Of a DNA stretch of 42,197 nucleotides, positions 128-18,791 are shown piece by piece. The first letter of the stretch is position 1. Each line of letters starts with the position of its first letter. Where the stretch lies: positions 1 through 42,197 of IMG/VR virus record IMGVR_UViG_3300026196_000015; one strand, 5' to 3'. A program made the translations under genes and the position numbers. The notes beneath the pieces are model-generated. The model was given only the letters and a program-made list of their open reading frames with translations. It was not told the origin of the DNA and searched no databases. Source of the stretch: a virus. Lineage: Duplodnaviria; Caudoviricetes.

Positions 128-933
128 TCCCCCAGGTTGACAAGCTCTTTATTTATTTTAATAATTGTCATTCTCTTAAAACACTACACAAACTTTCCAG
201 AGAGAAACTTACTTTTAAGTTTGGTGATAACCTCGGGGCCAATGGAAAATTCAAATTCCTGGATAAACCATACGATTATTACTTCTCTATCGATGACGAT
301 TTCATCTATCCGAAAGATTATGTCAAAGTGATGATTGCCAAAATAGAAAAGTACAAAAGGAAGGCGGTGATGTGTGTCCATGGCTCAACATTCCCCCCGC
401 ATCCCGACTGGTATTACGAAAGAATTAACTCGTACTCTTCCCGGGAAGGAACAGAGAAAGACCATCTTGTAAATCTGCCCGGGACTGGAACAGTTGCATT
501 TCATAAAGACACTTTCCGGAATATGACATATGATCGCTTCAACGGTTCTGTGAAATGCGATCTGAAACTTGCGATTGCTTGCCATGATCAAGGAATCCCT
601 ATTATATCAGTTATGAGGAAAAAGAACTGGCTAAGACCAATCACGACAGATGGCCCTGATTATTGGTCAAGATGCCTATCGGATGACGAAGGAAGAACAG
701 AACTTGCCCAGACAAAAGACTGGTCATTTTGGCCAAGCAGATTCTTTCCCGAAAAACCTGATTACTGGGCAGAAGTTTCTCAACTCCATTTAATCACCAG
801 GTTTCGCTATCTCAGCAAGTTCTTCCATGGTGGGATTCATGACATGAAATATTTCATGAAATACCCGCTGTCTGGATTGAAAGAGATAGTCGAAAGCCTT
901 GAAGAGAAAAAACGACAATTGGAAAATAAATGA
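58..933 (+). CDS. Glycosyltransferase, GT-A fold (GT2-like)
   Basis: N-terminal MATIPERAETL...IDSIIPQVD, DxD-type SIDDDFIYP, and PGTGTVAFH; ATGA overlap with the upstream ORF across the junction. Confidence 0.8.
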   Translation: MIIAGMATIPERAETLNSVIDSIIPQVDKLFIYFNNCHSLKTLHKLSREKLTFKFGDNLGANGKFKFLDKPYDYYFSIDDDFIYPKDYVKVMIAKIEKYKRKAVMCVHGSTFPPHPDWYYERINSYSSREGTEKDHLVNLPGTGTVAFHKDTFRNMTYDRFNGSVKCDLKLAIACHDQGIPIISVMRKKNWLRPITTDGPDYWSRCLSDDEGRTELAQTKDWSFWPSRFFPEKPDYWAEVSQLHLITRFRYLSKFFHGGIHDMKYFMKYPLSGLKEIVESLEEKKRQLENK

Positions 934-1652
934 GAAATTACCTAGCCATAGGCGGTTGCCCACGATCAGGGACAACGGCATTGACAGATTTTTTGAACAT
1001 GGATGATAGAATATTCATCGGCCGTGAATTCAAAATATTCGACCATTGGGATAAACCTATCACCTTGGGCGGTATTATCGATGAGCGGTTTAAGAAGTCC
1101 AGGGATAAACTGCTAAAAGTCAAACGGTATGGTATCAATCCGCCTCAAATCGGGCAGACTGGGAAATCGTACATGGATTATGTGGAGTCCGTGAGAGAGT
1201 TTGATATCTATGGCGACAAGATGCCTAGAAGCTATATCTATCACGCAGCAGATATGGCCAAACAATTCCCATCGATGAAGTTTATTTTTTGCCTGAGGGA
1301 TGGTAGAGACGTGGTAGCCTCTATGCTTCGCTTATGGAATAAAGGAGTCAGAAAAGGATTTACATTCGGGAATCCAATTGAAGCCCAAAGGTTTTGGGTC
1401 AGGCAAGTCAAGCATATGGAAGGGGCTTTATTTGGATTTCGTAAAAGAACTTTCCTGGCAAAATATGAGGAAATGGTCATGGATCCGGAAGGCTCCTCTG
1501 AAAAATTGGGAAGGTTCCTCGGCCTGGGAAAGATTAACATATCAAATCACAATTACCATCCTGTCCACATGGGAGCATGGAAAGATGAATTGCCGGATAT
1601 GCCGATGTGTGAAGAATTCAAAACAATGCTGAATAAATGGGGGTATAAGTGA
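930..1652 (+). CDS. PAPS-dependent sulfotransferase (Sulfotransfer_3-like)
   Basis: 5'-phosphosulfate-binding loop IGGCPRSGTT; 3'-phosphate-binding motif KFIFCLRDGRDVVAS; KYEEMVMDP. Confidence 0.88.
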   Translation: MRNYLAIGGCPRSGTTALTDFLNMDDRIFIGREFKIFDHWDKPITLGGIIDERFKKSRDKLLKVKRYGINPPQIGQTGKSYMDYVESVREFDIYGDKMPRSYIYHAADMAKQFPSMKFIFCLRDGRDVVASMLRLWNKGVRKGFTFGNPIEAQRFWVRQVKHMEGALFGFRKRTFLAKYEEMVMDPEGSSEKLGRFLGLGKINISNHNYHPVHMGAWKDELPDMPMCEEFKTMLNKWGYK

Positions 1653-2677
1653 AAAAACTTGCTGTTGTCGTGGCGTTCTTCAACCCCTTTGACAATGACT
1701 TGACCAGAAAGAATCTAATAACGACGGTCAAATCTCTTTACCAAGCGTGGCCTGATATCTTCGTGGTTGAGGTTAAATATAAACACCACAATAAAAAAGG
1801 AAATGCCAAATATACCCCGAAAGAAGTAAAACATATCTACCTGGAAGCTGAATCAGTATTCTTTCACAAAGAGCGGATGAATAATATCGTTTGCCGGGAA
1901 CTTGCCGAAGATTATGAAGTTGTTGCTGCTTTTGATGCAGATATCCTATTCCCTGATAGATTCTGGCCGCAAAGGATCATTACCACACTGGAAGAATTTG
2001 ACCTTGCTCAATGCTTCATGGAATCAGCTTCAGTCTTCAAAGACGATAGAGGAGATAAGATAAGAGATATCGTCAATAAGTCCTGCATGTACATGTTTTT
2101 GAAGCAAGGGCTGTTATCAGGATCCCCCGGTGGAGCATGGGCTGGCAGAAAGAAGTTTTGGGATATCGGACAATTTGATTCTTATGTCCTTGGGTCAAAC
2201 GATTCAATCTTATTTGACGGAATAACCGGAAGGGCAAGGGGCCAAGTTCCAGTTCAATATAAAAAAGTCCCTACCTCCAGGCCGATGCATGATAGAATCA
2301 TTGAATACACAGACCGCATGGAAGTCATCAAGCCTATTTTCGTCAGGCAGAATGTTGAGTTCCAGTTCCACACGACATTGACCGCCAAAAGGTACGGCGC
2401 CAGGCATACAATCATGGTTGACTTCAACCCCGACAAAGAGCTTGAGGTCAATAAAGACGGGCTTTATGAGTGGAAAAATCCAAACAGTAATCGCGCCCGA
2501 CTGATGACTGAATATTTCGAGGTAAAAGATAACCCAGAAAAAGACTGGTCAACCGCTGTTGATTGTCTCTGTATTAATTCGACGCCAACTGATGCCGGCT
2601 TCATTAAAGCTGGTCAGGTGATTCGCTTACCCATGCAGCAAATAAACAACCATTTTAGGATAATTTGGGATGAATAG
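1649..2677 (+). CDS. Glycosyltransferase, GT-A fold
   Basis: FHKERMNN, AAFDADILF (DxD), PGGAWAGR and LGSND motifs; GTGA overlap with the sulfotransferase. Confidence 0.7.
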   Translation: MKKLAVVVAFFNPFDNDLTRKNLITTVKSLYQAWPDIFVVEVKYKHHNKKGNAKYTPKEVKHIYLEAESVFFHKERMNNIVCRELAEDYEVVAAFDADILFPDRFWPQRIITTLEEFDLAQCFMESASVFKDDRGDKIRDIVNKSCMYMFLKQGLLSGSPGGAWAGRKKFWDIGQFDSYVLGSNDSILFDGITGRARGQVPVQYKKVPTSRPMHDRIIEYTDRMEVIKPIFVRQNVEFQFHTTLTAKRYGARHTIMVDFNPDKELEVNKDGLYEWKNPNSNRARLMTEYFEVKDNPEKDWSTAVDCLCINSTPTDAGFIKAGQVIRLPMQQINNHFRIIWDE

Positions 2678-2861
2678 GCAAAAAATACTTGATAGCTTTA
2701 AATTGAGAACAAGAAGACTTGACATATTCTCATTTTGGTATTCCTTGCCTAACGAAAAGCAAGAAGAATTTATTTTATTGTTAAATTCTTATGATATTCT
2801 ATACGGTGGCACACCGAAGAAACAAACAACTTTCACAGGGCTTGCTGGAAGATATGAATAG
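2670..2861 (+). CDS. Hypothetical protein (63 aa)
   Basis: Fills the gap between two GT genes and overlaps both neighbours by 8 nt. Confidence 0.5.
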   Translation: MNRQKILDSFKLRTRRLDIFSFWYSLPNEKQEEFILLLNSYDILYGGTPKKQTTFTGLAGRYE

Positions 2862-3489
2862 ACAACAAAAAAGAGCTGAAGAAAAATTCGCCAAGAAAAG
2901 AAACGATACCATCAGGAAGATTAAAAGACCGATGATTGCGATCGGGATTCCGGCAAAAGATTTCGTCTATCGTAATTTCGCCATCTCCTTTGCTAATATG
3001 CTGGTCTGGTCTTTCAAATGGATCGATATGCAGGTCATTGGTCAGGATAGCCCAACAATCTCTTTTAACCGCAATAGAATGGTATATGACGCCAGGAAAA
3101 TGTCAGCAGATTATATCCTGATGCTGGACAGCGATGAAGAAATAGATCGCCTGGCCCTGCTTAAGCTATTTTCTCATAGAAAAGACATCGTTGTTGCTGA
3201 TTATCCGAAAAGAACAAAACCATATCCTGCGGTGAACCCAAAACCATTGGAAGGGGAATCCGGTGATCTGGTTAGGCTTCCCTGGGCAGCTACCGGTTGC
3301 ATGCTGATAAAAATGTCTGCCTTTGACAAAATAGAATTCCCCTGGTTCCTTTCAGGATATGACGAAAACAACCAGGAGTTTGGTGAAGACCAGTATTTTA
3401 CAAAAAAAGCCATTCAAGGCGGCTTTGAGGTATGGCAAGATAACACCATTAAAATTGGGCATGGTGTTATTGATTACAAATACCTTTAA
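2854..3489 (+). CDS. Glycosyltransferase family 2-like protein with a basic N-terminal extension
   Basis: IAIGIP, ISFNRNRMV, YILMLDSD (DxD), AATGCMLIK, GEDQYFT, IKIGH. Start moved from 2791 to ATG 2854 (MNRQQKR) on the basis of overlap with the upstream stop. Confidence 0.8.
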   Translation: MNRQQKRAEEKFAKKRNDTIRKIKRPMIAIGIPAKDFVYRNFAISFANMLVWSFKWIDMQVIGQDSPTISFNRNRMVYDARKMSADYILMLDSDEEIDRLALLKLFSHRKDIVVADYPKRTKPYPAVNPKPLEGESGDLVRLPWAATGCMLIKMSAFDKIEFPWFLSGYDENNQEFGEDQYFTKKAIQGGFEVWQDNTIKIGHGVIDYKYL

Positions 3490-3573: not shown

Positions 3574-6156
3574 CTACCCTCCATTAAACAATCTGACAAA
3601 TGCGGTTCCATTTATCTCAACAGAAGACCCTGGTGTGTTATCATGAGATTTTATATGTATTGTTGCACCTGTTGATGTCAGGCTGCTAAATGATACTAAA
3701 TATGGTGTTGTCCCCTCAACATTCCACTCAACATTCCAAGCATCATCATATAATTCAACATCCCATGTTATTGCGTCCCCATCATCTACCGATGATAAAC
3801 GCAGAGGAGAAGAAGAATTCAGCCCGAAATTTTTCCCTAAATGACAACCTTCATTTCCAGTTGAACCAAGTAATACATTAGCTGTTGAAGTTGCTAATCC
3901 TATGAATGTATTCCCTGTTATTGACCCGTTTATGCCCAAAGCGTAAATATATATATTCCCGTCAGTACCATCGAGATAAAACATATTATTTACTATTGTG
4001 CATGTCATTGCGTTATAAGTTTCATACGTATCGTCAAAAATTATACAGTTCAACTGTAGAGTGTCTGGGGTATCATCAGCGGAATCATAAAAATTATTTG
4101 AATCAATAACAACTCTATTCGGGCTAATGGCAGCGTTTTCTGTTATTAAGAATCTAATACCGGCATATGTTGTGTCGGACCCACAATTTCTGACAATTGT
4201 ATTTCCAGATATAAGTCCAGTTTCATATCTTGTGTCAACCAGTATCCCATCTTCTTCATTTTGGTAAATAGTGTTGTTTGTGATTCTGACATTTGACATC
4301 CTCCCATACGATCCGACTGCGCCATAAACACCAAGCGCCCCACTTATCAGGATTCCGGCGGATTCACATTCTCTAACTACGTTATTATCGACAGCAAAAC
4401 CAACTGCTTGTGACCCAATAAGTATACCATTTCCCCCATCAGATGAATGAGTTGCGGTCCCTATCGTAACTTGGTAGGTGTCACCTGTACGCTTTTTCAT
4501 TCCTATAATAAGGTTGCCATAAACTCTGGCAGTAAACGGGTCTTCACAATACAATCCATTCCCAATGCAATTTTTTATCGTATTTCCAGAAAACACAATA
4601 CCGTTCCTATATGTATCGTCATTTGTCGCTGTGTCTATCCAACACACAGCACCGTCATTGTTTGACCTGGACGGAGCTGAGATGTCATAAAAGATATTGC
4701 CACTAATGACAGTGTTAGCCGCATGGTATCCCATTATCCCGGAAATGTTTTGCCCATAAAACGTGCAATTATTTATTGACACATTTCTACTGCCTAATGT
4801 TGACCCATAATTTCTGTATGCATACCCACCGTTTTCAAATTTACAGTTATCAATTTCCATGCGGGTATCTTTCGGGATCTCTACCTGCTCAGCCCCATTT
4901 GCGTATATAATAATGCAGCTCTGTGAGTTAGGATCAGATGTGTCTGCCCATACATTATCTTTGACACCAATAAATTTACAATCCCTAATGGCAACGTCTT
5001 TATAAAAATTCCAAATTTCTATGATATTATCTGTAGACGCTGTATTATTGAACCAGCAATTTTCTAAAACAACATTAGTGATTCCTCTCGCATCGCCAAC
5101 CTGTGACCCGGAAAAATCAACAAGAATACACCCCGTATTATTCGCGTTGTTAAGTATTTTGATGTTTTTCATTGAAAAATCATTAAAAGTGGTATCTGCT
5201 CCAAGTTGAATAAAAGACGTTTCTGAGTCCCCTGTGACTGTTATAGAAGCGTTATTGATTCCTTGAAGTGCTGTGTCACGATAAATTTTCATCAGTGACA
5301 TAACAGTGTCACCATCAAAAATTACATCTTCTAAAGTGTCTAATGCTGCCTGATTTGGTGATGTGTCATTCGTCACCCCGTCGCATTTTGCTCCAAACCA
5401 TTTTGTATTTACTGCTGTATCATATATTCTTTCCCATATTCCTGTTCCTGTTGAGGCTGTCCACCACCCAGCACCACCTGGAGATACACCGATATCATGG
5501 TCAATTATAGTTCCTCCATTATGAGTAGAAGCGTCACCAGAAGAGTTCCATCTAAATACCCCACCACCACCATCACCGGGGGTATAAAATCCGGTAAGAA
5601 TGGCAATCATATTTGTTTTTAAGTCAGATTTATCAAGCGCCAACAATGCTGACATTGTTGTTATCGGGACGGGGGCATACCCCTCAGAGGCGTATTTTAG
5701 ATTTACTTGTGATTGGCAATAAGCTTCGATATTATCTATCGTTAAAGACGTATTCCCAGTTGCCAATGAGGATTTTACGGACCTTCCTATGGCTTCTTTT
5801 AACTCCTGTATAAGCCTTGTGTGCCTATCGAATTGATCTTCGATGCTTTCTTCATTGTACCCATCTTGATTTTTGAGATCTGTTTCTTGAGTTAAAGCAG
5901 ATTCGGCCCCCATCGTTATTGTCGAATTACTATCGGGAGCAGTTGTCATAGTGATAGTTCCGCCATCCTCATCATCAGGCGTAAACGAGACGGTATAATC
6001 AACATTGAGAGTCTGTGTTGTTTCTACATCACTAGAGTCAGTAAGGACTACTATCAATTCATCTTCAGTTTCAATCGGGAAATCGAAATCGAAATCCTTG
6101 TTTGATCCATTCCCGGCTTGAGGTGGAGTTCTTCTGTCATTGGTGGCTAGTGTCAT
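3574..6156 (-). CDS. Tailspike/tail fibre with right-handed beta-helix (putative polysaccharide depolymerase)
   Basis: Podovirus anchor GNGSNKDFDFDFPI...TLNVDYTV; GFYTPGDGGGGVF tailspike motif; VNTKWFGAKCDGVTND pectate-lyase-like start; many Asn-ladder repeats. Confidence 0.85.
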   Translation of the reverse strand: MTLATNDRRTPPQAGNGSNKDFDFDFPIETEDELIVVLTDSSDVETTQTLNVDYTVSFTPDDEDGGTITMTTAPDSNSTITMGAESALTQETDLKNQDGYNEESIEDQFDRHTRLIQELKEAIGRSVKSSLATGNTSLTIDNIEAYCQSQVNLKYASEGYAPVPITTMSALLALDKSDLKTNMIAILTGFYTPGDGGGGVFRWNSSGDASTHNGGTIIDHDIGVSPGGAGWWTASTGTGIWERIYDTAVNTKWFGAKCDGVTNDTSPNQAALDTLEDVIFDGDTVMSLMKIYRDTALQGINNASITVTGDSETSFIQLGADTTFNDFSMKNIKILNNANNTGCILVDFSGSQVGDARGITNVVLENCWFNNTASTDNIIEIWNFYKDVAIRDCKFIGVKDNVWADTSDPNSQSCIIIYANGAEQVEIPKDTRMEIDNCKFENGGYAYRNYGSTLGSRNVSINNCTFYGQNISGIMGYHAANTVISGNIFYDISAPSRSNNDGAVCWIDTATNDDTYRNGIVFSGNTIKNCIGNGLYCEDPFTARVYGNLIIGMKKRTGDTYQVTIGTATHSSDGGNGILIGSQAVGFAVDNNVVRECESAGILISGALGVYGAVGSYGRMSNVRITNNTIYQNEEDGILVDTRYETGLISGNTIVRNCGSDTTYAGIRFLITENAAISPNRVVIDSNNFYDSADDTPDTLQLNCIIFDDTYETYNAMTCTIVNNMFYLDGTDGNIYIYALGINGSITGNTFIGLATSTANVLLGSTGNEGCHLGKNFGLNSSSPLRLSSVDDGDAITWDVELYDDAWNVEWNVEGTTPYLVSFSSLTSTGATIHIKSHDNTPGSSVEINGTAFVRLFNGG

Positions 6157-9100
6157 GATCTGTTCCTCCTCATGAAGTCTTGATAGTCGAAATCGGGATT
6201 ATCCCCGGTTGAATAGTCGTAAAGGTTCCCAAGTAAAATAATGATCTGTTTTAATGGAAGTCCGAAGATATACCCGGCTGTTTCTGCTGTTTGCTCAACG
6301 CCTTCCTTGATATCTTTTTCGTCTTTTATCACTCTTTCCCATGTCGTCAAAAAGTCTGCCACTGATTTCGGCGCTGCCTCTGCTGGTGTTGCTGAATAAT
6401 CCCATCCGGAAAAGGCGTAGTTTGCTACTTCACGAACTCCTATCACAGTTTGAAACGGATAGTTTGCCAGTTGGGGGAATGCCCAGTCCCACCATTCTTC
6501 ATCATCTTCCGGGCCTCTTCCTGATACCATTTCGGATAAAAGAGATGGTACAAACCACAACCAGACAGCAGCAGACGCCGCTATTGCCACTTTTCCCCCA
6601 AGTCTTGCCTGTTTAATCTGAGAAACCCTGAGAGAACCAAGATTGAATAGGGTATTAAAATAACTGTAAAACATCGTAAAAAGGCGGATCGCTTCGTCTC
6701 CTCTTTGTATCTTAGCCAGGTCTTTTGTCCCGCCTGCTCCTTGTGTCTGTCTTACGATAGAGTCAGCGAATTGTACTGCCTGTTCGTGCGATTTCCCATC
6801 TTTAAGAGCCTTGTCATATCCTGCGTACCAGGTTGGAAGGTCAACCCCCATCTGCATGAACCCAATTCCGGCAAAAGCTATTTTGTTGATGCCTTTTTTA
6901 TCGATCTTCCCACCAAATTTGGTAATATCCCGGATGTCACGATCAAACGATTGCATCCTGTTTCTCATGAATCCAGAGCTTGTTCTTGCAAATTCTATCC
7001 TGTCCCCAATTTTCGCATAATCATTCCCTATTCCATAGAACATCTTCAGACCTTTTGCAGACTGAACCATTCCTAGCTCGTCAATGGTTTGAGTATACCC
7101 GACAAACTGCTGAGCCATGGTGGTGAACTTTAACCCCATGGACATTAATGATGTTGAAGTCCTGGCCCATCTGAAAAGTTTGTGGTAAACGTCGGAAGCG
7201 TTAGCCTGTTCCTTAGCCACATCCTCCAGCCAACTATGCATTTGAGATTGTAAATTAACCCCGATGGTGTTGGTCAACGCTGTTTGAACGTCTTTATTTC
7301 TTATCAGCTTAGCAACATTCAGAACCGCTTTCCTGTGTGTGATGTCATGTACTACCTCAAAAACGTGGTCAGATATAACGGTCAGATCAAGCTTGATCTT
7401 CTTATCTCCTGCTGAAGCTACTCTTTCCTTCAAAGATCCTGCTCTTGTGTTTGAGGTCGCGTATGTGCGTTTAAATAGCGATTTAATATCATCCAATTGA
7501 CCGTGTTTGAAAGATGACCAGGACAGCCTTCTATCATATAAAATTGGGTAATAACCGCCTTTATATTCTCCGAATTTAGTCTGTACTGCCTCTGCTTTGA
7601 TCTCCTTGGGAGTCCGGCCCTTAATATCCTTTTCGACTGAGAAAAGATCATCCTTGAATGTTTCGATGTAATCCCAGATCTTTTGCACAGTATCCCAGTC
7701 TTCCTTGGTCAATGTGTCAAGGAGGTCTTCTAATTGCTGTTCTGACCAGCCATATCCTTCAATCAGTTTAGCTTTATTGTCCGAGTTCCCGGTATTCAAA
7801 GCCGCTGAGATAGCCTGTTGCCTTCTCATGTTGCTGAATTCTTTCGGAAGAGATTCGACATATACTCGCTTATTTGGGTCTTTGATTCCCTTGAAAATCT
7901 CCCTCATGGCCTTTGCTTCAACTTTCAGCCTGTCATCCCTGGCATGTTCAGCTTCAGCTATTGGCTCGAATAGATAATGATACCAATCTCCAGTTACTTC
8001 TCCATCAAGTTTCCTGAAAAGGGTTTCCATCTTGGTATGGACAGCAACCCCATTCCCCAAGAATTCCTTGACGTTATTCCGCTCAAAATCAATTCCTTTA
8101 ATCTTCTGAGTTTTTTCGACACGGGAAAGCAATTTGTCTGTAATCTCTTTAATCCTGATACGTTCACCGAGAGCAGTAAAATATCTCTCTTCTCGATCAA
8201 CGTGATTGATAATGAAGAAAGTATCAGATAGTTCCTGGAAGTCGGCAAAAGGAAGGTCTTTATAATCCTTCATGAAAGAAGGATTTCTGATAAAGTCAGC
8301 CAGGTCTATTTCATACCCATCTTTGGAATTAGCCCATGATTCAAGAGTCTGCCTGTCTCTTTCTGATACTTGATTCCTGACAGCTGCCACTGACATCTGT
8401 AAATCATTTGCGTTGAAATATCTTGCCTTAAACTCGCCGGCCGCTTCCGGATCCATTTGTGATAATGCGGATTGGATATCTTCAGGCAGTAGCTTCTTGC
8501 CATCTGCCCGGATCAATCCGAATCTTGCCGCTAAGTCACGCACCTGGTTTAAAGTATCCTGAGTTAATGCCGTTGAATTGCTCAGCCCTTTGACTTTGCG
8601 TTGTAGCTTCTCAACTTCCTTTCGCATGGTCATCGATTGCTTGGCCATGGCATGAGCCATTCTTGCCAGGTAATTTGCATCAGCCGCTTCTTTTTTCTTT
8701 CCGAGTCTTATCGAAGATCTCTCTTTATCAGTGTGCCGCTTAAAATCAGACATGAATCGCCTGGTATTGATGGCATCTCTTACCGGCATTGAACCCAGTT
8801 TCTCTTTTGCAAATTCAGCCATCCCCAACTTTTCCACCGGTTTTCCGCCTGCCCTGTTGATATACCGGTTTTTTATATCCATGTAATCGCTGAACGGTTT
8901 TGTCGAATTGATATACTCTTCTGGTTTGAAACGATTAAACCAGTCAGTTGTATTGGATTCAACGCTCTGTTTAATAAAATCTGTCTTTGAAGGAGATGTC
9001 AGCAAGGCCGTGATTAGTTCTTGCTCTGATTTATACCCGGTTTGCTCCGTGGCCACCAGAACGCTCATGCCGTTTTTCTTAGCCAGGCGTTTTTTGCGCA

Positions 9101-12100
9101 AGCTATCGGCTACTTCATCGCCGTGCACTTCCCTGACCTCATCCAGATCTAAAGCCGCTCCTTCCCGCAAAAATTTGATTGCCCTTCCAGTCTGTGAACC
9201 TTCAAACTCTCTTGCCGCCTGTTTCCGCCATTGCGCCTGGAACTTTCTTAGATCGCTGTGATATTCGTCTTCAGCTTCCGCTTGAGCTTTTTTGAGAAGG
9301 TCAGACATCGCTCGTTTATCATCCTGAGTCACGCCGAGCTTCCTGGCTTCCTCATTGCTGAGAGTCGTCATGTTATTCTCGATCATAGCCTCTTCTGACA
9401 ACTGTTTGACCGTGAATAGATTGTTCATGACTTCCCGGATCTCATCGGGGATTTGGGCTGGAATATTGGATGAAGAAATTGTCCGGTAAACTGACATCAT
9501 CCATTCTTTGATTCTTCTGAATACTGAGCGTAGATCAGCTGTCGGAGCCTCCCCATCAAGCAGGTATCTCTCGAAAGAGCCAGCAAACTTTTCCTGTGCC
9601 GCTACGTCTATCTCTCCATCAGGCGATACATTCAGATAAGTTGATAGAGTTTGATAATCATTCAGGAAATCATTCGAAGCAGACCCGGAATCTGCAATCT
9701 GTTTCATTTCTGCCAGGAACACATGACCGAGCTCATGAAACAGCGTTGACTTGTCTGATTGCATCAATTCAATGGCATATCGATCACCAGAGATTAGGAC
9801 AGCGCCACGTTTTTGCTTCCCTGGTTGTAGGAATGTTTTTATTTGTTCAAGCGTTTTTACCTTGCTGCCAAAGGGTATTAAATAACTTGTCCCAAACTCA
9901 TCGCTCATAGCAACAGCATCGAACCCTTGATTTACGGCAATTTGTCCCCTTATTTTTTGAGCGTACCAACTAGCTTCCCCCAAATCTTCATATCCATATT
10001 CTAAAAACGGATTATCTCCATATTCAAAAATATTTTTATCATCTGCCGTTAGATCATAAATTTGCTCTATCTTTTGTTCATCAGCGTCTGGAAATTCTTT
10101 TTTTAAATAATCAACCGTTTTATCATAATCAAAACTTACATCGCCTCTTTTAGCGACCTTCCCCTTTCTTGGATAAAAAGTATTTTGTATTTCACCGCCC
10201 TGGTTTGACATTTCTCCAGCGCTTCCAAATATACCATCAAATAACCCATCTTTTTTTATCTCTGTTATTTTCTCGTTAGAACCATGGGTTATAGGGAATC
10301 CAGTATCATATTTTTCTTGTTCTCCTGATTGCCAAAATGTTTTTAACTTTTCGACGGCCTGGAAAAGGATGTTGGGATTTTTTGGGTCAAATGTGCCACG
10401 GTTGAAGACTGATTTGATTTGGGTTGGGTTGAAGGCAATAAAATGGGTAGTCCCTGGTGTTACCCCTTCCATTGACTTCCCAGTTTTTCTTTGGCTTCCA
10501 AACTTTTCGTCTACCGTGTTATCGATTATACCATCATATCCTGCTTCTTCAAAAGCTCGTCTGATTAGTTCTCCTGATGCAAGATTTCCATTTTCATCAG
10601 TTGCATATTGCAACCCTTCATTGTTTTTTAATGTTTCTACAAGTGATCTCGCAGTTATTTCACTCACGCCATAATCAGCAACAGTCATGACGGAATCTAT
10701 GGCAGGTTGGATGTCAACTTCTTCAAACTCATAACTGACAGACCTTAGAGCATCAAAAAACTCTAGGAGAGATCCTTGTTCATCAATATAGCCATTGTCA
10801 ATTGCCATCTCTCTTGTTCTTTCATCAATTAAATCCTGCTTTTCTTCTTCACTGACATCAGGATAATCTTGTTCTATTTCTGCTGTAGCTTCTTCAATAA
10901 AAGGTTCCGTCTCGTAAACTTGCTCTATGGAGAATGTCGTTTCGTTTTCCCCACCAATAATCACAGGATTTTTGAAAGACACATAAGCAGGAATGACATT
11001 AGGGGATCCACCAGAAAGCTCTTCTCTCGCTTTTTTTAAAGCTTCTTCGTAATCAATTTCTTCTTCCTGCTCTATCCGCTCTGCTCTTAGCTCTATTCTT
11101 CCTGTTAGATCAGGCCCTTCACCAGCATAATTAGCAGCAACATCACTCTGGTTATTAGTGAAGTAAAAGCCTAGCCCCAAATCATTCTCTGGGTTCCCTT
11201 TATCCTTTATGAATTCATCGAAACTATGTGTTGTCCCATGATAAACAACCAAAGGCTGGCCAGATTCATCAACAACCCTGGAATCTCCAAACCATTTTTT
11301 AAAGTTCTCCGCCTTGGTATCGATCTCTTGACCTAATCCCTCATTCAATACCCGCTTAATCTCTGCCATTGAACCGGGGCGATTGATCGTGAGCTTTTTG
11401 ACAAATTCGGTCTTATTAAGTCCCTCCAGGCCCATTCTGTTTGCGAAACGATCAACCAAAGTAGCAAAAGCGTCTGTTTCCCCTTGGGGAACTCCTGCCT
11501 TTTTCGCCTCTGATTTTACCCTGTTGATCTCCCCCTGGTATGTCTTTTCTGAGTCCTGGTATTCCTGGTAAAAATCCCGCTGCTTTTTGATCTCAGTCTC
11601 AACATCAAGCCCTTTCAGATCATTCTTTGTGTAACCATCCAGGGTTGCCTTGATGTCGTTCAATAATTGATTCCTCGCACCTTCATCGAGGTTGATCAAT
11701 TTGTGAACGTCGATCTTCAAATCTGACGAATCAGTTGTTTCAGACTCAGCCCTTATTTCATCAAGAATGGAATCGGCCTGTTCCTTGTCTCCCTGATAAA
11801 GTTTTTCGATTCCTTCCTGGGAGAGATAGGCGTATCGATCAACTCCAAGATTTCTGAGAAACTTTAATGTGTTGATGGATTGTCTCGCCTTGGTTTTCGT
11901 CTGGTCTATCTTATCGCCAATCCTCTGTATCTTATCGGCAAACGCCTCTGACTCTACCTTTTTTGCCTGGATATTAAAGACGCTCTTTGAGAGATTCACA
12001 GAAGCACCAGAGATCGGAAACAAGGCCCCAATTGTTCCGCCTATTGCTGCAGAATACAAAGCATTTGACTGGAATTCTTCGCTTGTTATTCTCTGATAAT

Positions 12101-13172
12101 ACTTATTCAATAGTTCAGGCGTATCCAGACCTGGATTCTTGGCGTAAACATCGGCAAACTCATCAGGATACGATTGCAAGTATTCTTCAAGACCTTCCGC
12201 CGTCGATGTTTCTAAAAGCGAAGCCAAAAAATCTACTGCCTTGCCGGGCTTAACCATTTTTTTGAAGGCACCAATACTAATCAGGTTACCGGCATATTCA
12301 AGCGGTGTTTGTCCCATGGCAGACATGACAGCTGCTCTTCTCGCTCTGTCCTTATCAACCCCTTGACGTTGCAAGTCTTCATATTTCTGACCGGCTATCT
12401 GACGATACATGCCAAGCATTCCGAGGGGGCCAACCGCTGCTGTTGAAGCCATCCCGACAACAGAACCGCCAAATCCCCTGAAAACATCTTCGACAAATCC
12501 TGTGCTTGATTGTTCATATTCTTCTGGCAATTGAAGGCTTGGATTGTCTTTTACGTCTGTCCAAAACTTCCTTCTCGGCTCTATGAAATCGCTGAGAGCT
12601 TTCGTTTCTGCCTGATCTTGTGGTAATCCAGACTTTTTGTTTTCCTCAACTGCTTTTAATAATTCCGCGCGTTCAATCAGGGGAGCGCTTTTAATGTAAT
12701 CTTTTACCTGAGTAATGTCCTCAAGATTTAATCCCTCTATGGCCATAACATTTCCAGCTGCGAAACTGGAAACAGACTTCTTTAATTCAGCGAAGAAACC
12801 ACCAAAAAGCCTCCCTGCAGTCAGAGAAGGATGTTTCTTTTTCCATTCCCTTTCTACTTCGGCAAGCTTTTCAACGTCATCATGACTGACAAGAGCATTG
12901 GTAAAGTCAGACATGTATTCAGATGTTTTGGGATTATCTGACAGGATTTTGGCAGATTTAATCTTGTTGGTTTTCGCCCTGACTAATTCAGGATCTTCTC
13001 GAACAGTCGATAGAGGTAACCCAGATTCCCTGGATAATTTCTGATTAAACGCCTCCGCTTCCGGATTCTGTGTTGACGCTATCTCAATATTGGAATCGGC
13101 ACCGGATACGGCAAAAATATCCTGGTTCTCTTTCTTTTTCTCTGCTTCCAGTGGTGAGAAAATATCATTCAT
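6153..13172 (-). CDS. Large internal virion/ejection protein (2339 aa) with ADP-ribosyltransferase, AcrIF11-like and zincin domains
   Basis: Third internal-protein slot, just before the tailspike. FKKWFGDSRVVDESGQPLVVYHGT...GYDGII...FNPTQIKS (ART); THGS...QKIRG...MSDEFGTS (AcrIF11-like); TLFHELGH (zincin); C-terminal ADSIVRQTQG...LFTMFYSYFN typical of these proteins. Confidence 0.8.
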   Translation of the reverse strand: MNDIFSPLEAEKKKENQDIFAVSGADSNIEIASTQNPEAEAFNQKLSRESGLPLSTVREDPELVRAKTNKIKSAKILSDNPKTSEYMSDFTNALVSHDDVEKLAEVEREWKKKHPSLTAGRLFGGFFAELKKSVSSFAAGNVMAIEGLNLEDITQVKDYIKSAPLIERAELLKAVEENKKSGLPQDQAETKALSDFIEPRRKFWTDVKDNPSLQLPEEYEQSSTGFVEDVFRGFGGSVVGMASTAAVGPLGMLGMYRQIAGQKYEDLQRQGVDKDRARRAAVMSAMGQTPLEYAGNLISIGAFKKMVKPGKAVDFLASLLETSTAEGLEEYLQSYPDEFADVYAKNPGLDTPELLNKYYQRITSEEFQSNALYSAAIGGTIGALFPISGASVNLSKSVFNIQAKKVESEAFADKIQRIGDKIDQTKTKARQSINTLKFLRNLGVDRYAYLSQEGIEKLYQGDKEQADSILDEIRAESETTDSSDLKIDVHKLINLDEGARNQLLNDIKATLDGYTKNDLKGLDVETEIKKQRDFYQEYQDSEKTYQGEINRVKSEAKKAGVPQGETDAFATLVDRFANRMGLEGLNKTEFVKKLTINRPGSMAEIKRVLNEGLGQEIDTKAENFKKWFGDSRVVDESGQPLVVYHGTTHSFDEFIKDKGNPENDLGLGFYFTNNQSDVAANYAGEGPDLTGRIELRAERIEQEEEIDYEEALKKAREELSGGSPNVIPAYVSFKNPVIIGGENETTFSIEQVYETEPFIEEATAEIEQDYPDVSEEEKQDLIDERTREMAIDNGYIDEQGSLLEFFDALRSVSYEFEEVDIQPAIDSVMTVADYGVSEITARSLVETLKNNEGLQYATDENGNLASGELIRRAFEEAGYDGIIDNTVDEKFGSQRKTGKSMEGVTPGTTHFIAFNPTQIKSVFNRGTFDPKNPNILFQAVEKLKTFWQSGEQEKYDTGFPITHGSNEKITEIKKDGLFDGIFGSAGEMSNQGGEIQNTFYPRKGKVAKRGDVSFDYDKTVDYLKKEFPDADEQKIEQIYDLTADDKNIFEYGDNPFLEYGYEDLGEASWYAQKIRGQIAVNQGFDAVAMSDEFGTSYLIPFGSKVKTLEQIKTFLQPGKQKRGAVLISGDRYAIELMQSDKSTLFHELGHVFLAEMKQIADSGSASNDFLNDYQTLSTYLNVSPDGEIDVAAQEKFAGSFERYLLDGEAPTADLRSVFRRIKEWMMSVYRTISSSNIPAQIPDEIREVMNNLFTVKQLSEEAMIENNMTTLSNEEARKLGVTQDDKRAMSDLLKKAQAEAEDEYHSDLRKFQAQWRKQAAREFEGSQTGRAIKFLREGAALDLDEVREVHGDEVADSLRKKRLAKKNGMSVLVATEQTGYKSEQELITALLTSPSKTDFIKQSVESNTTDWFNRFKPEEYINSTKPFSDYMDIKNRYINRAGGKPVEKLGMAEFAKEKLGSMPVRDAINTRRFMSDFKRHTDKERSSIRLGKKKEAADANYLARMAHAMAKQSMTMRKEVEKLQRKVKGLSNSTALTQDTLNQVRDLAARFGLIRADGKKLLPEDIQSALSQMDPEAAGEFKARYFNANDLQMSVAAVRNQVSERDRQTLESWANSKDGYEIDLADFIRNPSFMKDYKDLPFADFQELSDTFFIINHVDREERYFTALGERIRIKEITDKLLSRVEKTQKIKGIDFERNNVKEFLGNGVAVHTKMETLFRKLDGEVTGDWYHYLFEPIAEAEHARDDRLKVEAKAMREIFKGIKDPNKRVYVESLPKEFSNMRRQQAISAALNTGNSDNKAKLIEGYGWSEQQLEDLLDTLTKEDWDTVQKIWDYIETFKDDLFSVEKDIKGRTPKEIKAEAVQTKFGEYKGGYYPILYDRRLSWSSFKHGQLDDIKSLFKRTYATSNTRAGSLKERVASAGDKKIKLDLTVISDHVFEVVHDITHRKAVLNVAKLIRNKDVQTALTNTIGVNLQSQMHSWLEDVAKEQANASDVYHKLFRWARTSTSLMSMGLKFTTMAQQFVGYTQTIDELGMVQSAKGLKMFYGIGNDYAKIGDRIEFARTSSGFMRNRMQSFDRDIRDITKFGGKIDKKGINKIAFAGIGFMQMGVDLPTWYAGYDKALKDGKSHEQAVQFADSIVRQTQGAGGTKDLAKIQRGDEAIRLFTMFYSYFNTLFNLGSLRVSQIKQARLGGKVAIAASAAVWLWFVPSLLSEMVSGRGPEDDEEWWDWAFPQLANYPFQTVIGVREVANYAFSGWDYSATPAEAAPKSVADFLTTWERVIKDEKDIKEGVEQTAETAGYIFGLPLKQIIILLGNLYDYSTGDNPDFDYQDFMRRNRS

Positions 13173-14928
13173 TAATTGCTACCGCTTTATTGCGAAATTT
13201 TTGAGCTTCGGCATATAGTTCTGATGTTGGAGGAAGGCCCATATAATAAACCCTGGCATAAAGCCTGATCGTTGTATCGTTCACTTTATAATTGCCATCC
13301 TGGATCAATTTATCTGTTATTTCCTGCTTTAATTCCTCATCATCAACAAATGGCAACCAGGTATTGGCTTCACCTTTCTCGACTGCCTGCTCGTATGAAA
13401 GATTGCTTCCTCTGCCAATATTGAAGATTCCAGCGTTTGCAATCTCTCCTCTCTTCCCGAGCTTCTTCTCGATTACCTTTTTATTGATGATCTTGTTCTC
13501 TTCTTCAGGAGTGATCTTTTTACCGGTAGACTCTTCTAGGTTATTGATCTCTTGCTCTACCTCATTGGCAAAATCGGCAAATTGAGCATTGTATTCCTGC
13601 TGTCTAGATTCAGATGCGTTCCGTGGTTTATTAATTCCGACCTGTTCAGCTGCTTCTTTTATTTTCGCTGTTGTCGTTCTTGACCTGGTAAATTTTCCTG
13701 TCTCTCGCTCTTTGTTCTGATCGTCAATTAACCGTTTTTTGTCTGTGAGAGATATCAAAGGATTGACAGCGATGTTTTCAGAAACGAACTCTTCATGAGA
13801 TAAAGACTTAATCCTCTGGTATTCCCTTGGGTCTGTCTTTATCTCTCCCTCGCCTTTGATGTAAGACCTCGCCGTTTTAAGGAGAGTCGGCCTCACTTCA
13901 GGATCTGATTTATTGGCAATGGCAAAGATCGCATTTCTCCAATTCGGATCATTCTGGACAGCTGTCTCCATCTCATTTGTTGCGGTATTGAGGGCGTTAT
14001 TCAGCCTGAGTTTTTTTGCGTTTTCATCTCTTACTTTCATGTTATCAAGCAGAGTCAAAACGGCTTGCCGTTCTTCGGCACTATCGATCTTTCTTGCCGC
14101 CTCAAGCCGTCCTTCGTATGTATCATTCTTTACATAGATGTCATCTGCCTTGTTTTGATATCTCTGTGTGTCTTTTTCCCGGTTGATTCTATCCTTCAGA
14201 GAATTCCTGACATCGGCATTGATTTGTTCCTTGTGATTATCGAAATAAGCACTGGCAAGTTCAACCCGGTTATCGCGTTCTTTATCCTTCAAAAAAGAGT
14301 CAATCATCGCAGTGTGAGCTGCTGTCAGGGTGTTTTTGACTTCGCGCTTAACAACGTCCTCTCCCAACTCAGCATATGCTTCCCTGGTTTCATTGACTGC
14401 TTCCTGGATGTCTGTGCTTCTCTGAGTCGGATCGTACTTATTGATAGATGCCGACTGAATAGCGTTGTCCCTTTTGGCCAGTGTCTCTTGCTTTGCCCAA
14501 TTTCTGATCTCTCCTTGTTCATGGGCGTACATATCGATTTCGATGTTATTCATCACCGGGGCCATCTCCATCCGGAACATTCTTTGCTGTCTCGGATTCT
14601 CCAGAGAAGATAGAGCCGATTCAAACTGATTCTTTGCGTAATCGGTATAAGATTCCGTGACCCCAACAGCCTGTTTGCCTTTTATATTACGAGCCTCAAC
14701 AAGCCTCTCCATCAATGTTTTCCTGATGGTATTCTGAGCAGACTTAACCGCTGCAGTATCATTCCTATCCTGGATATCCTCAAAGATGCCCCCGGCCTGA
14801 ACCAACTGCTGACCAAAATTTGATATGCTGGCAGCTAAAGCCCTATCCCCGGAAAAGTCCTGTTTCGGTCTTTGCTCCCTGGTAGTTGGGACTGGTTCTA
14901 CTTGTCTTTTTCTTACCTGAATAGGCAT
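13165..14928 (-). CDS. Internal virion/ejection protein (587 aa)
   Basis: Helical, charged sequence; located between the small and large internal proteins. Confidence 0.65.
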   Translation of the reverse strand: MPIQVRKRQVEPVPTTREQRPKQDFSGDRALAASISNFGQQLVQAGGIFEDIQDRNDTAAVKSAQNTIRKTLMERLVEARNIKGKQAVGVTESYTDYAKNQFESALSSLENPRQQRMFRMEMAPVMNNIEIDMYAHEQGEIRNWAKQETLAKRDNAIQSASINKYDPTQRSTDIQEAVNETREAYAELGEDVVKREVKNTLTAAHTAMIDSFLKDKERDNRVELASAYFDNHKEQINADVRNSLKDRINREKDTQRYQNKADDIYVKNDTYEGRLEAARKIDSAEERQAVLTLLDNMKVRDENAKKLRLNNALNTATNEMETAVQNDPNWRNAIFAIANKSDPEVRPTLLKTARSYIKGEGEIKTDPREYQRIKSLSHEEFVSENIAVNPLISLTDKKRLIDDQNKERETGKFTRSRTTTAKIKEAAEQVGINKPRNASESRQQEYNAQFADFANEVEQEINNLEESTGKKITPEEENKIINKKVIEKKLGKRGEIANAGIFNIGRGSNLSYEQAVEKGEANTWLPFVDDEELKQEITDKLIQDGNYKVNDTTIRLYARVYYMGLPPTSELYAEAQKFRNKAVAINE

Positions 14929-14931
14929 GAT

Positions 14932-15453
14932 TTAACTCGCGTTTTGGTATTTGTCCCAACGGTCAGCTAAAGTAGCCGCTGAATTTAAAACTGACCCTGT
15001 TCCTTGGATATTGCTTGCCAAAGCTTTCGCATCATATTGTTTGCCAAGAGCACGTCCTGTCTTTCTCATATACCTTGCTTCCCTTAACAATCGGTTGCGT
15101 TCATTGGCATAGATATTTCTTAATTCATTGACATCGGCCTCAACTGACCTTTCTGAATCCTGAATGATGTCAGCTGATGTGCCAGTATCCAACCTGACAC
15201 CAGTTCCGGAAGCTGATGACTTCTGCTCTCCAATGAATTGCTGACCTTCTGACTGTAAGGACTTCTCTTTTTTTACCCCGATAACCCCGATCTCTTTAGC
15301 TGCTTTTTCAGCTTGACCTGCTTGGAAATAAGCGTCTCCTATGGCAGCATCTTTTTCATTTTGTATAGCCTGTGCGTTGGTGTACATGCTATATAGATCA
15401 GTCCCTAATTTTATTGCGGCTATTACTGCACCGACAACTGCAGGCCATCCCAT
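14932..15453 (-). CDS. Small internal virion protein (T7 gp14-like position)
   Basis: Hydrophobic G/A-rich N-terminus, SGTGVRLDTGTSADI motif; directly after tail tube B. Confidence 0.65.
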   Translation of the reverse strand: MGWPAVVGAVIAAIKLGTDLYSMYTNAQAIQNEKDAAIGDAYFQAGQAEKAAKEIGVIGVKKEKSLQSEGQQFIGEQKSSASGTGVRLDTGTSADIIQDSERSVEADVNELRNIYANERNRLLREARYMRKTGRALGKQYDAKALASNIQGTGSVLNSAATLADRWDKYQNAS

Positions 15454-15462
15454 AAATTCTCC

Positions 15463-18204
15463 CTAATCATGCCCGTAATCCGGGACAATTGATAATATTG
15501 TGCAAGGAACTGGTTCGTCATTACGGAAAAAACTGGTGGCTATTCTCTCATCTTCATAATCGAATTCCGCTCGTTTGTAGCCAGTAAACAAATCAGGTGG
15601 ATTACCACCAAGTCCAGCATCCCTGAACTGAACCAAATCTAAATTGCTTGAATTCTTTCCAGCTTTCAGGTTCCGTGTCTTATAAACATGGATTAACATA
15701 TCCTGAATTCGCTTTTTCTCTCCAGGTTCCCGTGATAAATCCAAGCATTCAAGATCTGAATTATACTTCAGCCCCACTTTAATAACAGAATAGGTCGAAG
15801 CATTCACAGTGATCGCCCCACTTGATACGGCATAAGGCCCTTTTACGGCACCATCGCAAACGGCATAGACTGATTCACCTTCCAGATGATCAAGACCAGT
15901 TAAGGTAGCCGTACCCGGTGAAACATATTCAACTCCGCTGTCCACAAAGAAGAAATCATAAGTGTCTTCGTCATCGATTCTTGGCATCAGGATCTCAATA
16001 TAATACTTGTCTGAACCGTTTATGGTGCGCTTAACAACAAAATACATGGTATCTATATCTTCACCAGGGAACATCTCAACTGCAGTGAATTGTCCGTCTG
16101 TCTCGAATTGCTGCCAGGCAGAAACTTGCTGGTCTGGAATATAAAGACAACCCAACAACGTCCCGCTCGATAAAACAACCCAGAGCATCTTGTAGGGATT
16201 AGTCTGGTAAGCCCAGTCTTTGATCGTTGTTCCTTCGAATAAATGCTCAGAGATGTAGTTCAACTGCGTTTCAAGGAACCCGAAATCTGAATTATCTTTG
16301 ATCTGGTAAATATCTTTCCCGCCTTTCCTCACCACAAGCAAGTTATTCGCTACTTTTTCCGGTGGAATTGCCGCGCAGCCAATATCTGATCTTTGGTCTA
16401 CAAAAACATCTCCTGGAGCGACAATTGTATTCTGTGTGCCCGTTATTTTAAATATCCCGTTAGATGTTCCGAGAGCTAGTCCATTCAACTCTGACAACCA
16501 CCTTATGTCATGCGGTTTTCTGGAATCGATGTCATAATTGAAAGCGTCATCATCTTGCGTTGGTGAATCGAAATTGAAGTTTGTTATATCGGTGATCTTC
16601 GAATGGTCTACTCGATGCGGATAGTCTGAACTCCCTGCAAGAACCAACCTCTGGTTATAGATAGAAACAGCTTTTGAATACTCGCCTGATTTATCACCGA
16701 GCGGGACTCTCCAATGCCTTGTCGAAAAAGCTGGATCTCTTTCTGTCACCGCAAAAATGTTTAAGTAAATTTTTTCATCTTCATAGTAGTTAGCATATTC
16801 CATTGTTATGCAGGCGTATGGAGCATTAGTCTTGAAATTGTGAAAGATGTCATTACTGGAACCGATGTCAGAAGCTCCTGGTGTTGTCCCTACTCTGATC
16901 GTTATATCATAATCAGCTAAAACTTTTGGCGGAACTCTTGGCGTTGAATCATATTCCCAGGCGATGAAGGCGACTAAGTTTGTCCCCGCCTCTATCGGGA
17001 TATTATTCTGCCTTAACACAACGCTATTACCTGCAACAGCATCGTCATATCCGTCAAAATTTGTCATGGAAGTAAACAGATCTGTTCCGCTGGTTCCGGC
17101 CTCGAGAGAGACACTATAGTTTTTACCAGGTGTGATTATTGATATTTTGTACCCATTATCATCGTCAGAATATTCACATATAAACCCTTGCCCGCTCAGA
17201 GCGGTGTTTATTAATGATGCGATATCCCCATGCAATAGAGCTGCGGCAGTTGTGATGCTGTATTCTACTGTATTTATTATAAAATAATATGTTGTTGTTG
17301 AAGATAGGCCTGATGCATCTAATGATGTATCGTTAGTGCATGAAGCTATTTGATAAGATAGTGGTGTTGTTCCGTTGTTTGCCTCTAACTTCCCGCTCGT
17401 GGCAAAACTTATGCTGGCATCTCCTGTTGATGCGTCTTCCCATTCTTCTATCCCGGATTTAAACCTGAAATTCTTGTTATAGGCATACCCAAAAGGGCCA
17501 TACAGCATTTCAAAGGTTGCGTAATTTGCCCCACCAGCCGCTCCTCTTTGCAATGCCTTCCATTGGATATCTGTTTGGTCTATTACGCTCGGATGGCCAC
17601 AATTCAGGTAATTTTCTGAGATCAATAGATATGGAGAAGCTCCTGACTCTTCCAGGATTATGTCTGGCCCGTTATTGTTTTCATAATAAGCTTTGGTTTG
17701 GGGAGATATGGTCTTTGATTCTAAAGTATAAGGCTTCCTCCATGGCCCTTGTTCACCTGACATCGCCACCGCAAGAGTCCAGTTTGTATCCGCTGTTCTG
17801 GTAAGCTTCCTGGTCTGATAATCTTCTGATGTTATATACAAAGCATCTGCCGACTGTGCAAAACTAAGTTTCCAGAGATTTGCTGTCGTGTACGGTGATG
17901 TGATGTAGTAATCAGTTAGGTATTGCTGCAGAACAGCACCATCTTTGATGATGAATATTTTCAGATTGCAGAAAATAAAGATATAATTGGATCCGCCTGT
18001 ACTGAACAGAACCAGCCTTTGGTCAGAATCACAGACATTGTCGACATACTTTGTTCCTGCCCTGTTTTCTACGCCACCACCAGGCAAAATAATCCAGTTT
18101 TTGATTGTCTTAGCAGACTGGTAGAATAGATCAAGATCGACTCTTCCCTGAAATCTTGGCCCTATCTCTCCAGATATAAATGAAGCTTGCAACCTTTTCG
18201 TCAT
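15463..18204 (-). CDS. Tail tubular protein B / nozzle
   Basis: QASFISGEIGP...GRVDL...NWIILPGGGVENRAGT N-terminus; FAQSAD; GLDHLEGESVYAVCDG C-terminal motif. Confidence 0.85.
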   Translation of the reverse strand: MTKRLQASFISGEIGPRFQGRVDLDLFYQSAKTIKNWIILPGGGVENRAGTKYVDNVCDSDQRLVLFSTGGSNYIFIFCNLKIFIIKDGAVLQQYLTDYYITSPYTTANLWKLSFAQSADALYITSEDYQTRKLTRTADTNWTLAVAMSGEQGPWRKPYTLESKTISPQTKAYYENNNGPDIILEESGASPYLLISENYLNCGHPSVIDQTDIQWKALQRGAAGGANYATFEMLYGPFGYAYNKNFRFKSGIEEWEDASTGDASISFATSGKLEANNGTTPLSYQIASCTNDTSLDASGLSSTTTYYFIINTVEYSITTAAALLHGDIASLINTALSGQGFICEYSDDDNGYKISIITPGKNYSVSLEAGTSGTDLFTSMTNFDGYDDAVAGNSVVLRQNNIPIEAGTNLVAFIAWEYDSTPRVPPKVLADYDITIRVGTTPGASDIGSSNDIFHNFKTNAPYACITMEYANYYEDEKIYLNIFAVTERDPAFSTRHWRVPLGDKSGEYSKAVSIYNQRLVLAGSSDYPHRVDHSKITDITNFNFDSPTQDDDAFNYDIDSRKPHDIRWLSELNGLALGTSNGIFKITGTQNTIVAPGDVFVDQRSDIGCAAIPPEKVANNLLVVRKGGKDIYQIKDNSDFGFLETQLNYISEHLFEGTTIKDWAYQTNPYKMLWVVLSSGTLLGCLYIPDQQVSAWQQFETDGQFTAVEMFPGEDIDTMYFVVKRTINGSDKYYIEILMPRIDDEDTYDFFFVDSGVEYVSPGTATLTGLDHLEGESVYAVCDGAVKGPYAVSSGAITVNASTYSVIKVGLKYNSDLECLDLSREPGEKKRIQDMLIHVYKTRNLKAGKNSSNLDLVQFRDAGLGGNPPDLFTGYKRAEFDYEDERIATSFFRNDEPVPCTILSIVPDYGHD

Positions 18205-18791
18205 ATCCTGGCCGTGATAAATTCACAATCTGGTTCGGTGTCTTCTGATTTTGTTTGGGTATCTGCTGATTTTGCCATCGACAACGCTTTATCAGCCATA
18301 TCTTCCAGCTTTTCAATCTTTTGCTTAGGGGCAGTTGTAGGACTCATTGCGACTGCCAAAGCAAAGGAAAAGGCTTTTCTGAACTTCGCTGTATACATAT
18401 TCGGATTGTCCAGATACGCCGTGTAAATCAAGACCGCGTCTTGCTGGTTTGTGCAAATAATCCTATCCCCATCACTGTTTTCCATGATCTCAAAATTGGT
18501 AGGGACAGCTGATCGTGAAGGCCTTTGAATCTCACGAGGCATTACGCAATCAGAGGGCCACTTGTAAGCATAAGCCCATTCCACCGGATCTTCATCTGAC
18601 AGGACATTCAAAGCAGCGCTCTTTTTCGCAAATTGCCATGGGTGATCTTCAAGCATATCTCTCAAGATATACTCGTAAACCCTGTTGCAGAGACGCCCGT
18701 TCTTGGTGTCTGTTTCCCCAAAAGAAGTAATTGGATCGGCGCCAAGATGAACGACCAGAGCTATATTGCACACATCAGTTTTTGTTGGCAT
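18201..18791 (-). CDS. Tail tubular protein A / adaptor
   Basis: DVCNIALVVHLGA..ITSF, HPWQFAKK, WAYAYKWPSDC motifs. Confidence 0.85.
   Translation of the reverse strand: MPTKTDVCNIALVVHLGADPITSFGETDTKNGRLCNRVYEYILRDMLEDHPWQFAKKSAALNVLSDEDPVEWAYAYKWPSDCVMPREIQRPSRSAVPTNFEIMENSDGDRIICTNQQDAVLIYTAYLDNPNMYTAKFRKAFSFALAVAMSPTTAPKQKIEKLEDMADKALSMAKSADTQTKSEDTEPDCEFITARI

Follow-up and report, generated by a model that had tools for sequence, protein, structure and literature searches.

An AcrIF11-family ADP-ribosyltransferase domain within a predicted ejection protein of a podovirus-type phage

The phage genome and the 2339-residue carrier

The window, that is, the whole stretch of DNA analyzed here (42,197 nucleotides; IMG/VR record IMGVR_UViG_3300026196_000015), is a circularly assembled podovirus-type genome. 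Its 127-nt terminal overlap (positions 1-127 and 42071-42197) indicates a probably complete genome of ~42,070 bp. A scan of 42 ORFs revealed no integrase. The phage sits alone in IMG/VR, as a single metagenomic genome in a one-member cluster with no close phage relative. Host assignment failed both from the terminase, for which the best matches share 23-27% identity, and from DnaB, which at about 40% identity matches proteins in mixed phyla. The sequencing run that best covers the window bears the label soil metagenome and may be its origin. One Logan contig, possibly from the source sample, covers the whole gene discussed below with 0 differences, and no RNA dataset is listed as carrying the window sequence. 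Across the circular junction, a NAD-dependent epimerase gene and four ORFs without a named PHROG follow one another contiguously (40793-41839 and 58-3489, plus strand). Judged by eye from their motifs, the four ORFs resemble glycosyl- and sulfotransferases, and the five genes might form a sugar-modification cluster.

The gene of interest (6153..13172, minus strand) encodes, in one continuous frame, a 2339-aa polyvalent protein assigned by homology to an ejection scaffold of the IVP-D (T7 gp16) type. It is preceded on the same strand by a gene that fills the IVP-C slot and encodes a lysozyme-like N-terminus (13165..14928; phrog_10475, E 2e-24), a T7 gp14-like internal virion protein in the IVP-B slot (14932..15453; phrog_418, E 7e-11, with a weak match to PF24072, E 0.0066), and the tail nozzle and adaptor genes (15463..18791; phrog_376 and phrog_394). 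Directly downstream lies a beta-helix tailspike gene (3574..6156, minus strand), recognized by PHROG and Pfam matches. The order of nozzle, IVP-B, lysozyme protein, 2339-aa ORF, and tailspike is that of phages AF and Carin1.

The C-terminal part of the protein, aa 1110-2339 (6156..9845, minus strand), is a conserved scaffold (phrog_9880) common to Carin1 gp32, AF gp16, and BPP-1 Bbp10. The C-terminal half of the carrier shares 31% identity with Carin1 gp32 (E 4e-161) and 24% with Bbp10 (E 4e-71), the latter being listed as a T7 IVP-D homologue in Table 2 of PMC4819975. Homology to a listed IVP-D protein, together with a position past the nozzle, IVP-B, and IVP-C genes, places the carrier in this family. 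In a predicted model, aa 1600-2339 are helical (pLDDT 83), and T7 core proteins occupy the first two places among 743 VIA rows, with modest Z scores of 5.8 and 5.5 that must be read against the helical nature of the model (rmsd 5.3, 203-225 residues aligned). Foldseek with this model returned nothing at E<=0.001 (E 0.41), and a scaffold profile run against PDB sequences gave nothing below E 0.01. PADLOC, applied to four proteins, gave no match. The first-pass annotation had placed the protein in the ejection slot; gene order and the homology to Bbp10 agree with this placement, and the prediction that the 2339-aa protein is an ejected internal virion protein is well supported by homology and gene position.

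Several features in front of the scaffold and at its start had been overlooked. An LPD22 domain (PF18834) occupies aa 26-118 (12819..13097, minus strand; 61.3 bits, cut-off 28.6), and a first ADP-ribosyltransferase (ART) domain, ART-PolyVal (PF18760), occupies aa 635-924 (10401..11270, minus strand; 59.7 bits, cut-off 31.2). An HExxH motif at aa 1146-1150 (9723..9737, minus strand), conserved in alignments of relatives, marks a predicted zincin-like peptidase domain. As LPD22 and ART-PolyVal both score above their Pfam cut-offs and are accompanied by the HExxH motif, the carrier counts as a polyvalent protein as defined in PMC5512222: a large product of a structural operon that combines unrelated enzymatic and LPD domains. 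A long acidic stretch, roughly aa 690-870, is additionally inserted in the ART-PolyVal domain; most scaffold relatives lack it.

The AcrIF11-family domain and its probable insertion into the carrier

Between ART-PolyVal and the HExxH motif lies a second ART domain of another family, aa 955-1108 (9849..10310, minus strand), which ends 38 residues ahead of the motif. Sequence and structure comparisons converge on its identity. With phmmer, the domain matches AcrIF11 itself (6KYF, AcrIF11_Pae1) at E 5.2e-9 and 8DWQ (AcrIF11_Pae2) at E 0.0063, and a profile of 84 family sequences improves these values to 1.1e-28 and 2.3e-19, respectively. The NCBIfam equivalog NF052490 (AcrIF11_anti) is matched over model positions 3-142 of 142 with 79.9 bits (cut-off 50), and the precomputed family PF26151 was present on 5/5 early homology matches. 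The AlphaFold model of the domain (pLDDT 95.9) displays the diphtheria-toxin-like beta core and helical subdomain of the AcrIF11 fold. In Foldseek, 6KYF is its only PDB match at E<=0.001 (E 9.6e-8), and VIA superimposes the two with Z 13.8 and rmsd 2.5 over 126 aligned residues, at an identity of 24-26%. The domain belongs to the AcrIF11 family. The earlier proposal of an AcrIF11-like domain at ~aa 960-1107 is thereby borne out, including its quoted motifs (ITHGS at aa 961, 10292-10278, and MSDEFG at aa 1089) and the AcrIF11 stretches it cited, which agree with the phmmer alignment to 6KYF; the structural comparison with AcrIF11 it had suggested as a check is significant.

Alignment with 6KYF allows the active-site residues to be assigned. 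His963 (10284..10286), Phe982 (10227..10229), and the pair Asp1091-Glu1092 (9897..9902), all on the minus strand, are the equivalents of His7, Phe26, and the catalytic Asp115/Glu116 of AcrIF11, so that the catalytic Asp had been correctly located at 9902-9900. The Asp/Glu pair is invariant in 84/84 aligned family members and kept in 98-99% of 179 non-redundant domains, although the IMG/VR rows among these were retrieved with a pattern requiring both residues. Across the same 179 domains, the His963 position is 85% and the Phe982 position 99-100% conserved, and within the subclade of the window's domain, the four equivalents are kept at 85-100%. A counterpart of His37 is absent, with no His in aa 985-995, and members of the subclade differ at this column (Tyr 24%, Ala 20%, His 15%).

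AcrIF11_Pae1 works through His7, Phe26, His37, and Asp115 (PMC8120803). Inhibition is abolished in Pae1 by D115A and in Pae2 by D146A/E147A, and in the active Pae2, mutagenesis implicates Tyr46 in the His37 region (10.1101/2024.08.26.609590). From the latter result, His37 is not a family-wide requirement. The residue pattern hints that the domain is likely to be catalytically active. It is also acidic (28 Asp/Glu vs 17 Lys/Arg), and the net charge is negative in 176/179 domains.

The domain appears foreign to its surroundings. PF26151 occurs in the query only among the top 120 of 420 scaffold relatives, and the AcrIF11-family HMM matches 0/119 close scaffold relatives. On both sides, the domain is flanked by a degenerate 39-nt in-frame direct repeat, with the left copy at aa 941-953 (10314..10352) and the right copy at aa 1109-1121 (9810..9848), both on the minus strand, agreeing at 27/39 positions. 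In a control, 0/484 zone pairs reached 27 matches (maximum 24), bearing in mind that the repeat was noticed before the test. By eye, relatives P0160 and P0164 run from ART-PolyVal through one short linker copy into the peptidase domain; in the window's protein, this linker is doubled and flanks the AcrIF11-family domain as the 39-nt repeat. The GC3 of the domain is 0.25 vs 0.43-0.45 in the scaffold (p 3e-6), a difference to be read alongside the low values of ART-PolyVal (0.32) and the tailspike gene (0.32). The nearest relative of the domain, in P0008 (64%), belongs to another kind of carrier, which matches a PHROG 'DNA transfer protein' and has a transglycosylase. Four other carriers (P0003, P0039, P0045, and P0129) possess the long C-terminal scaffold, and as they are scattered over the domain tree, repeated gain is suggested. 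Taken together, the AcrIF11-family domain looks like a later, cassette-like insert in its carrier.

Other origins of the domain were rejected. Tandem duplication of the neighboring ART-PolyVal is ruled out by an hhalign probability of 0.6% between that domain and the AcrIF11-like profile; searched against a local Pfam copy, aa 955-1108 match no family at E<=0.1, PF18760 included. A separate internal gene is likewise ruled out, as aa 902-987 contain no in-frame start codon, and promoter-like sites number 4 vs 3.6 expected by chance. The arrangement also departs from a stand-alone acr-aca operon, with the domain in frame and the carrier between ejection and tailspike genes.

Fused and stand-alone members of the family

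The domain had been treated as a one-off, whereas it is in fact recurrent. A full HMMER search yielded 326 cluster representatives at E<=0.001, of which 150 were listed. Among the 149 other relatives listed, 118 are fused forms of more than 200 aa. The lengths divide into 45 relatives of at least 500 aa, 73 of 201-499 aa, and 31 of at most 200 aa, and the first 36 listed all exceed 200 aa; these counts include some fragments and carry a bias from the query and from clustering at 50%. Polyvalent-protein Pfam domains score above cut-off in 21/35 scanned carriers of at least 639 aa, and other carriers match the PHROG families 'DNA transfer protein' and 'internal virion protein' or DarB-like families. 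In one 920-aa protein, P0114, an AcrIF11-family domain (aa 27-175) and the anti-CBASS protein Acb1 (aa 191-332) are present in one polypeptide.

Genomic context separates the two forms. Merging the 80 loci retained from 110 confirmed in IMG/VR gave 46 groups, with neighbor labels passed on by blastp from PHROG-named neighbors. In 19/26 fused groups, a terminase, portal, scaffold, capsid, tail, or ejection gene lies on the same strand no more than 3 kb away, and 4 of the remaining 7 comprise proteins of more than 3000 aa. Short-form groups lie near same-strand structural genes in 3/20 cases, with a contig end nearby in two of them, and near antiterminator Q or lysis genes in 14/20. The AcrIF11-family domain recurs as a module in polyvalent virion proteins.

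Some loci deserve separate mention. Five carriers of ~290-680 aa adjoin portal, scaffold, or terminase genes (L014:3148-4152, L082:2933-3916, L046:5381-6910, L002:4150-6180, and L024:6054-6911). Their glycine/alanine-rich segments have no PHROG match and cluster with one another, and these carriers possibly form an unnamed class of head-packaged cargo proteins. In three lambdoid prophages, stand-alone genes are flanked by antiterminator Q and the lysis cassette (L018:9950-10465, L023:9929-10384, and L054:9989-10474), mostly on the opposite strand, and L023 scores 132 bits on NF052490. A stand-alone homologue matches 257 plasmid records, 242 of them predicted conjugative and mostly from Enterobacteriaceae; all 40 plasmid matches listed are annotated as hypothetical protein. 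An organism could be named by cluster membership for 1/30 family proteins (P0124, Chromohalobacter). A GTDB scan gave 2 loci, one of which (L085) fails the AcrIF11-family HMM.

In a FastTree phylogeny of 179 domains (226 before merging at 85%), the window's domain falls into a subclade of 59 rows (SH 100), 52 of which are fused. Short stand-alone forms are found mainly elsewhere, with 40/47 outside this subclade, and the short label changes 20 times on the tree compared with a mean of 41.7 after shuffling. The tree is unrooted and built without 6KYF and 8DWQ, so we claim no direction of evolution. The published AcrIF11 phylogeny dropped sequences of more than 200 residues, and this filter left out the fused forms, which constitute a large testable set.

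Proposed function and relation to known systems

These features can be combined into a model of delivery. The AcrIF11-family domain would be produced late as part of the largest ejection-slot protein of the phage, would travel with it in the capsid core, and would be ejected with the DNA, placing two ART domains together with the genome in the host cytoplasm, where the adjacent putative HExxH peptidase might free them. Using host NAD+, the domain would then modify and disable a surveillance complex of type I CRISPR ahead of any phage gene expression. Insertion in an ejection-slot protein makes packing and injection of the domain likely, and we regard packaging and ejection of its carrier as highly probable. 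Entry of the domain alongside the DNA followed by ADP-ribosylation of a host protein, which takes packaging, cytoplasmic access, and activity jointly, still seems probable, if somewhat less so. A type I CRISPR surveillance complex as the target is our best single guess overall, and a tentative one, being slightly more likely than not once injection and activity are granted. AcrIF11 requires the whole Csy complex.

Two lines of evidence favor a CRISPR target. Csy1 is modified by both tested members, whose similarity is only ~27% (10.1101/2024.08.26.609590), and the acidic surface of AcrIF11 is proposed to contact Cas7f K58/K60, which fits the prevailing negative charge of the family. Against this target count the separate subclade, the changed His37 loop, and the variability of the helical region that is proposed to set AcrIF11 specificity and is poorly conserved in the family. 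The neighboring ART-PolyVal also counts against it, as the carrier slot evidently accepts ARTs of another family. Type I-F systems are largely proteobacterial, and neither terminase nor DnaB pointed to a host for the phage. A weak further point is that Csy3 was found in 0/2 incomplete MAGs, including a Noviherbaspirillum MAG with a fused form.

Nearly as likely as a CRISPR target is that the domain is injected and active and modifies a non-CRISPR host protein, such as another defense complex, RNA polymerase, or a translation factor. Its action would then resemble that of T4 Alt or that proposed for the polyvalent ARTs, and AcrIF11 would be one CRISPR-specialized branch of a general effector family. 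Besides the subclade with its altered His37 loop, this reading agrees with the polyvalent Pfam domains in large carriers, with the occurrence of carriers across very different phage types, and with the general host-protein modification proposed in section 9 of PMC5512222. It is weakened by the shared Csy1 target of both characterized members, one of which is specific in lysate (10.1101/2024.08.26.609590), and by the score above the equivalog cut-off; the pairing with Acb1 in P0114 favors defense over housekeeping targets. Should the target lie outside CRISPR, the domain would still indicate a new host target and make AcrIF11 one branch of a wider effector family, and caution would be due with the 'anti-CRISPR' label that NCBIfam gives such proteins.

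A less probable course of events is that the domain is excised by the HExxH peptidase before packaging, or kept outside the cytoplasm, and acts late in the producing cell rather than at entry. The short distance to the motif and the late-region location of stand-alone homologues would be in line with this, as would P1 DdrB, which is processed before packaging (PMC5512222). However, the virion RNAP of N4 has a similar peptidase domain and enters the particle uncleaved (PMC5512222), N4 gp50 and H66 gp60 bear intracellular domains on IVP-D (PMC4819975), and an ART-like fold is present in a solved pre-ejectosome chain (9K3A_B 1420-1598; modest, Z 6.0). We consider it very unlikely that the domain is an inactive passenger or an acidic DNA-mimic module retained without catalysis. 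Its acidic composition and missing His37 equivalent would suit such a role, but the four active-site equivalents are largely kept across the subclade, and Pae2 is active with Tyr46 implicated in the His37 region. Finally, an assembly chimera or chance similarity, conceivable for a single genome in a one-member cluster, is largely refuted by the continuous frame, the Logan contig, the four other carriers with the same scaffold, and the family E-values and NCBIfam score.

Even the enzymatic AcrIF11 still needs a protein threshold, set by phage population size (10.1101/2024.08.26.609590). A catalytic inhibitor delivered by the particle would skip this threshold delay, and few copies could suffice. 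A doubtful extension is that the AcrIF11 family is largely virion cargo, with many podoviruses injecting a ready-made, catalytic anti-CRISPR joined to head or ejection proteins and the stand-alone acrIF11 genes being modules departed from such carriers; one particle would then disable type I CRISPR at first infection, without the earlier failed infections on which newly made Acrs depend.

With AcrIF11, known from crystal-structure work (PMC8120803 and PMC13131331), the window's domain shares the fold, the family model, the His7, Phe26, Asp115, and Glu116 equivalents, and the acidic charge. AcrIF11 ADP-ribosylates Cas8f Asn250 in the assembled Csy complex and blocks type I-F interference; for the domain described here, an AcrIF11-like target is a prediction. 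In contrast to the known members, which stand alone at about 130-170 aa and are made after entry, it is a domain of a 2339-aa late protein, lies in another subclade, and lacks His37.

The carrier resembles the polyvalent proteins (PMC5512222; PMC9503650) in its LPD22, ART-PolyVal, and HExxH elements. For those proteins, packaging and injection of ARTs have already been predicted (PMC5512222; PMC9503650), and release by a peptidase domain has been proposed (PMC5512222). The difference lies in the AcrIF11-family ART, which by the hhalign comparison given above is a separate family from their ART-PolyVal; AcrIF11 is not named in PMC9503650. T4 Alt is likewise a head-packaged ART that enters the cell with the DNA (PMC5512222), yet it is a separate myovirus protein, an R-S-E ART with RNA polymerase as its substrate. 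The IVP-D family (T7 gp16, epsilon15 gp17, BPP-1 Bbp10, N4 gp50, and H66 gp60; PMC4819975) has the same gene slot and helical C-terminal scaffold, and N4 and H66 similarly fuse cargo to it, but this cargo is an RNA polymerase or a methylase rather than an enzyme of an anti-CRISPR family (PMC4819975). Gp15 of ICP3 and T7-like phages is an ejection protein with counter-defense activity, inhibiting CBASS CapV (10.1101/2025.07.23.666291); there, however, the structural protein itself inhibits stoichiometrically, against CBASS and without an added enzyme domain.

In the cyanophage A4 pre-ejectosome, the ART-like match in PDB 9K3A chain B (1420-1598) extends over 138 aligned residues with rmsd 4.1. 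By its length, this chain is probably gp27, and it may represent an unannotated ART in a solved ejectosome; the string 'ADP-ribos' is absent from the main text of PMC12002296 on this structure. Pf-WMP3 ORF26, also an IVP-D protein, gives a weak match to the domain model. We found no published virion-delivered or fused AcrIF11, and such proteins may be listed in the supplements of PMC5512222 or 10.1101/2024.08.26.609590, or under PF26151. Virion-borne ARTs as such are a known theme, established for T4 Alt and predicted for polyvalent proteins.
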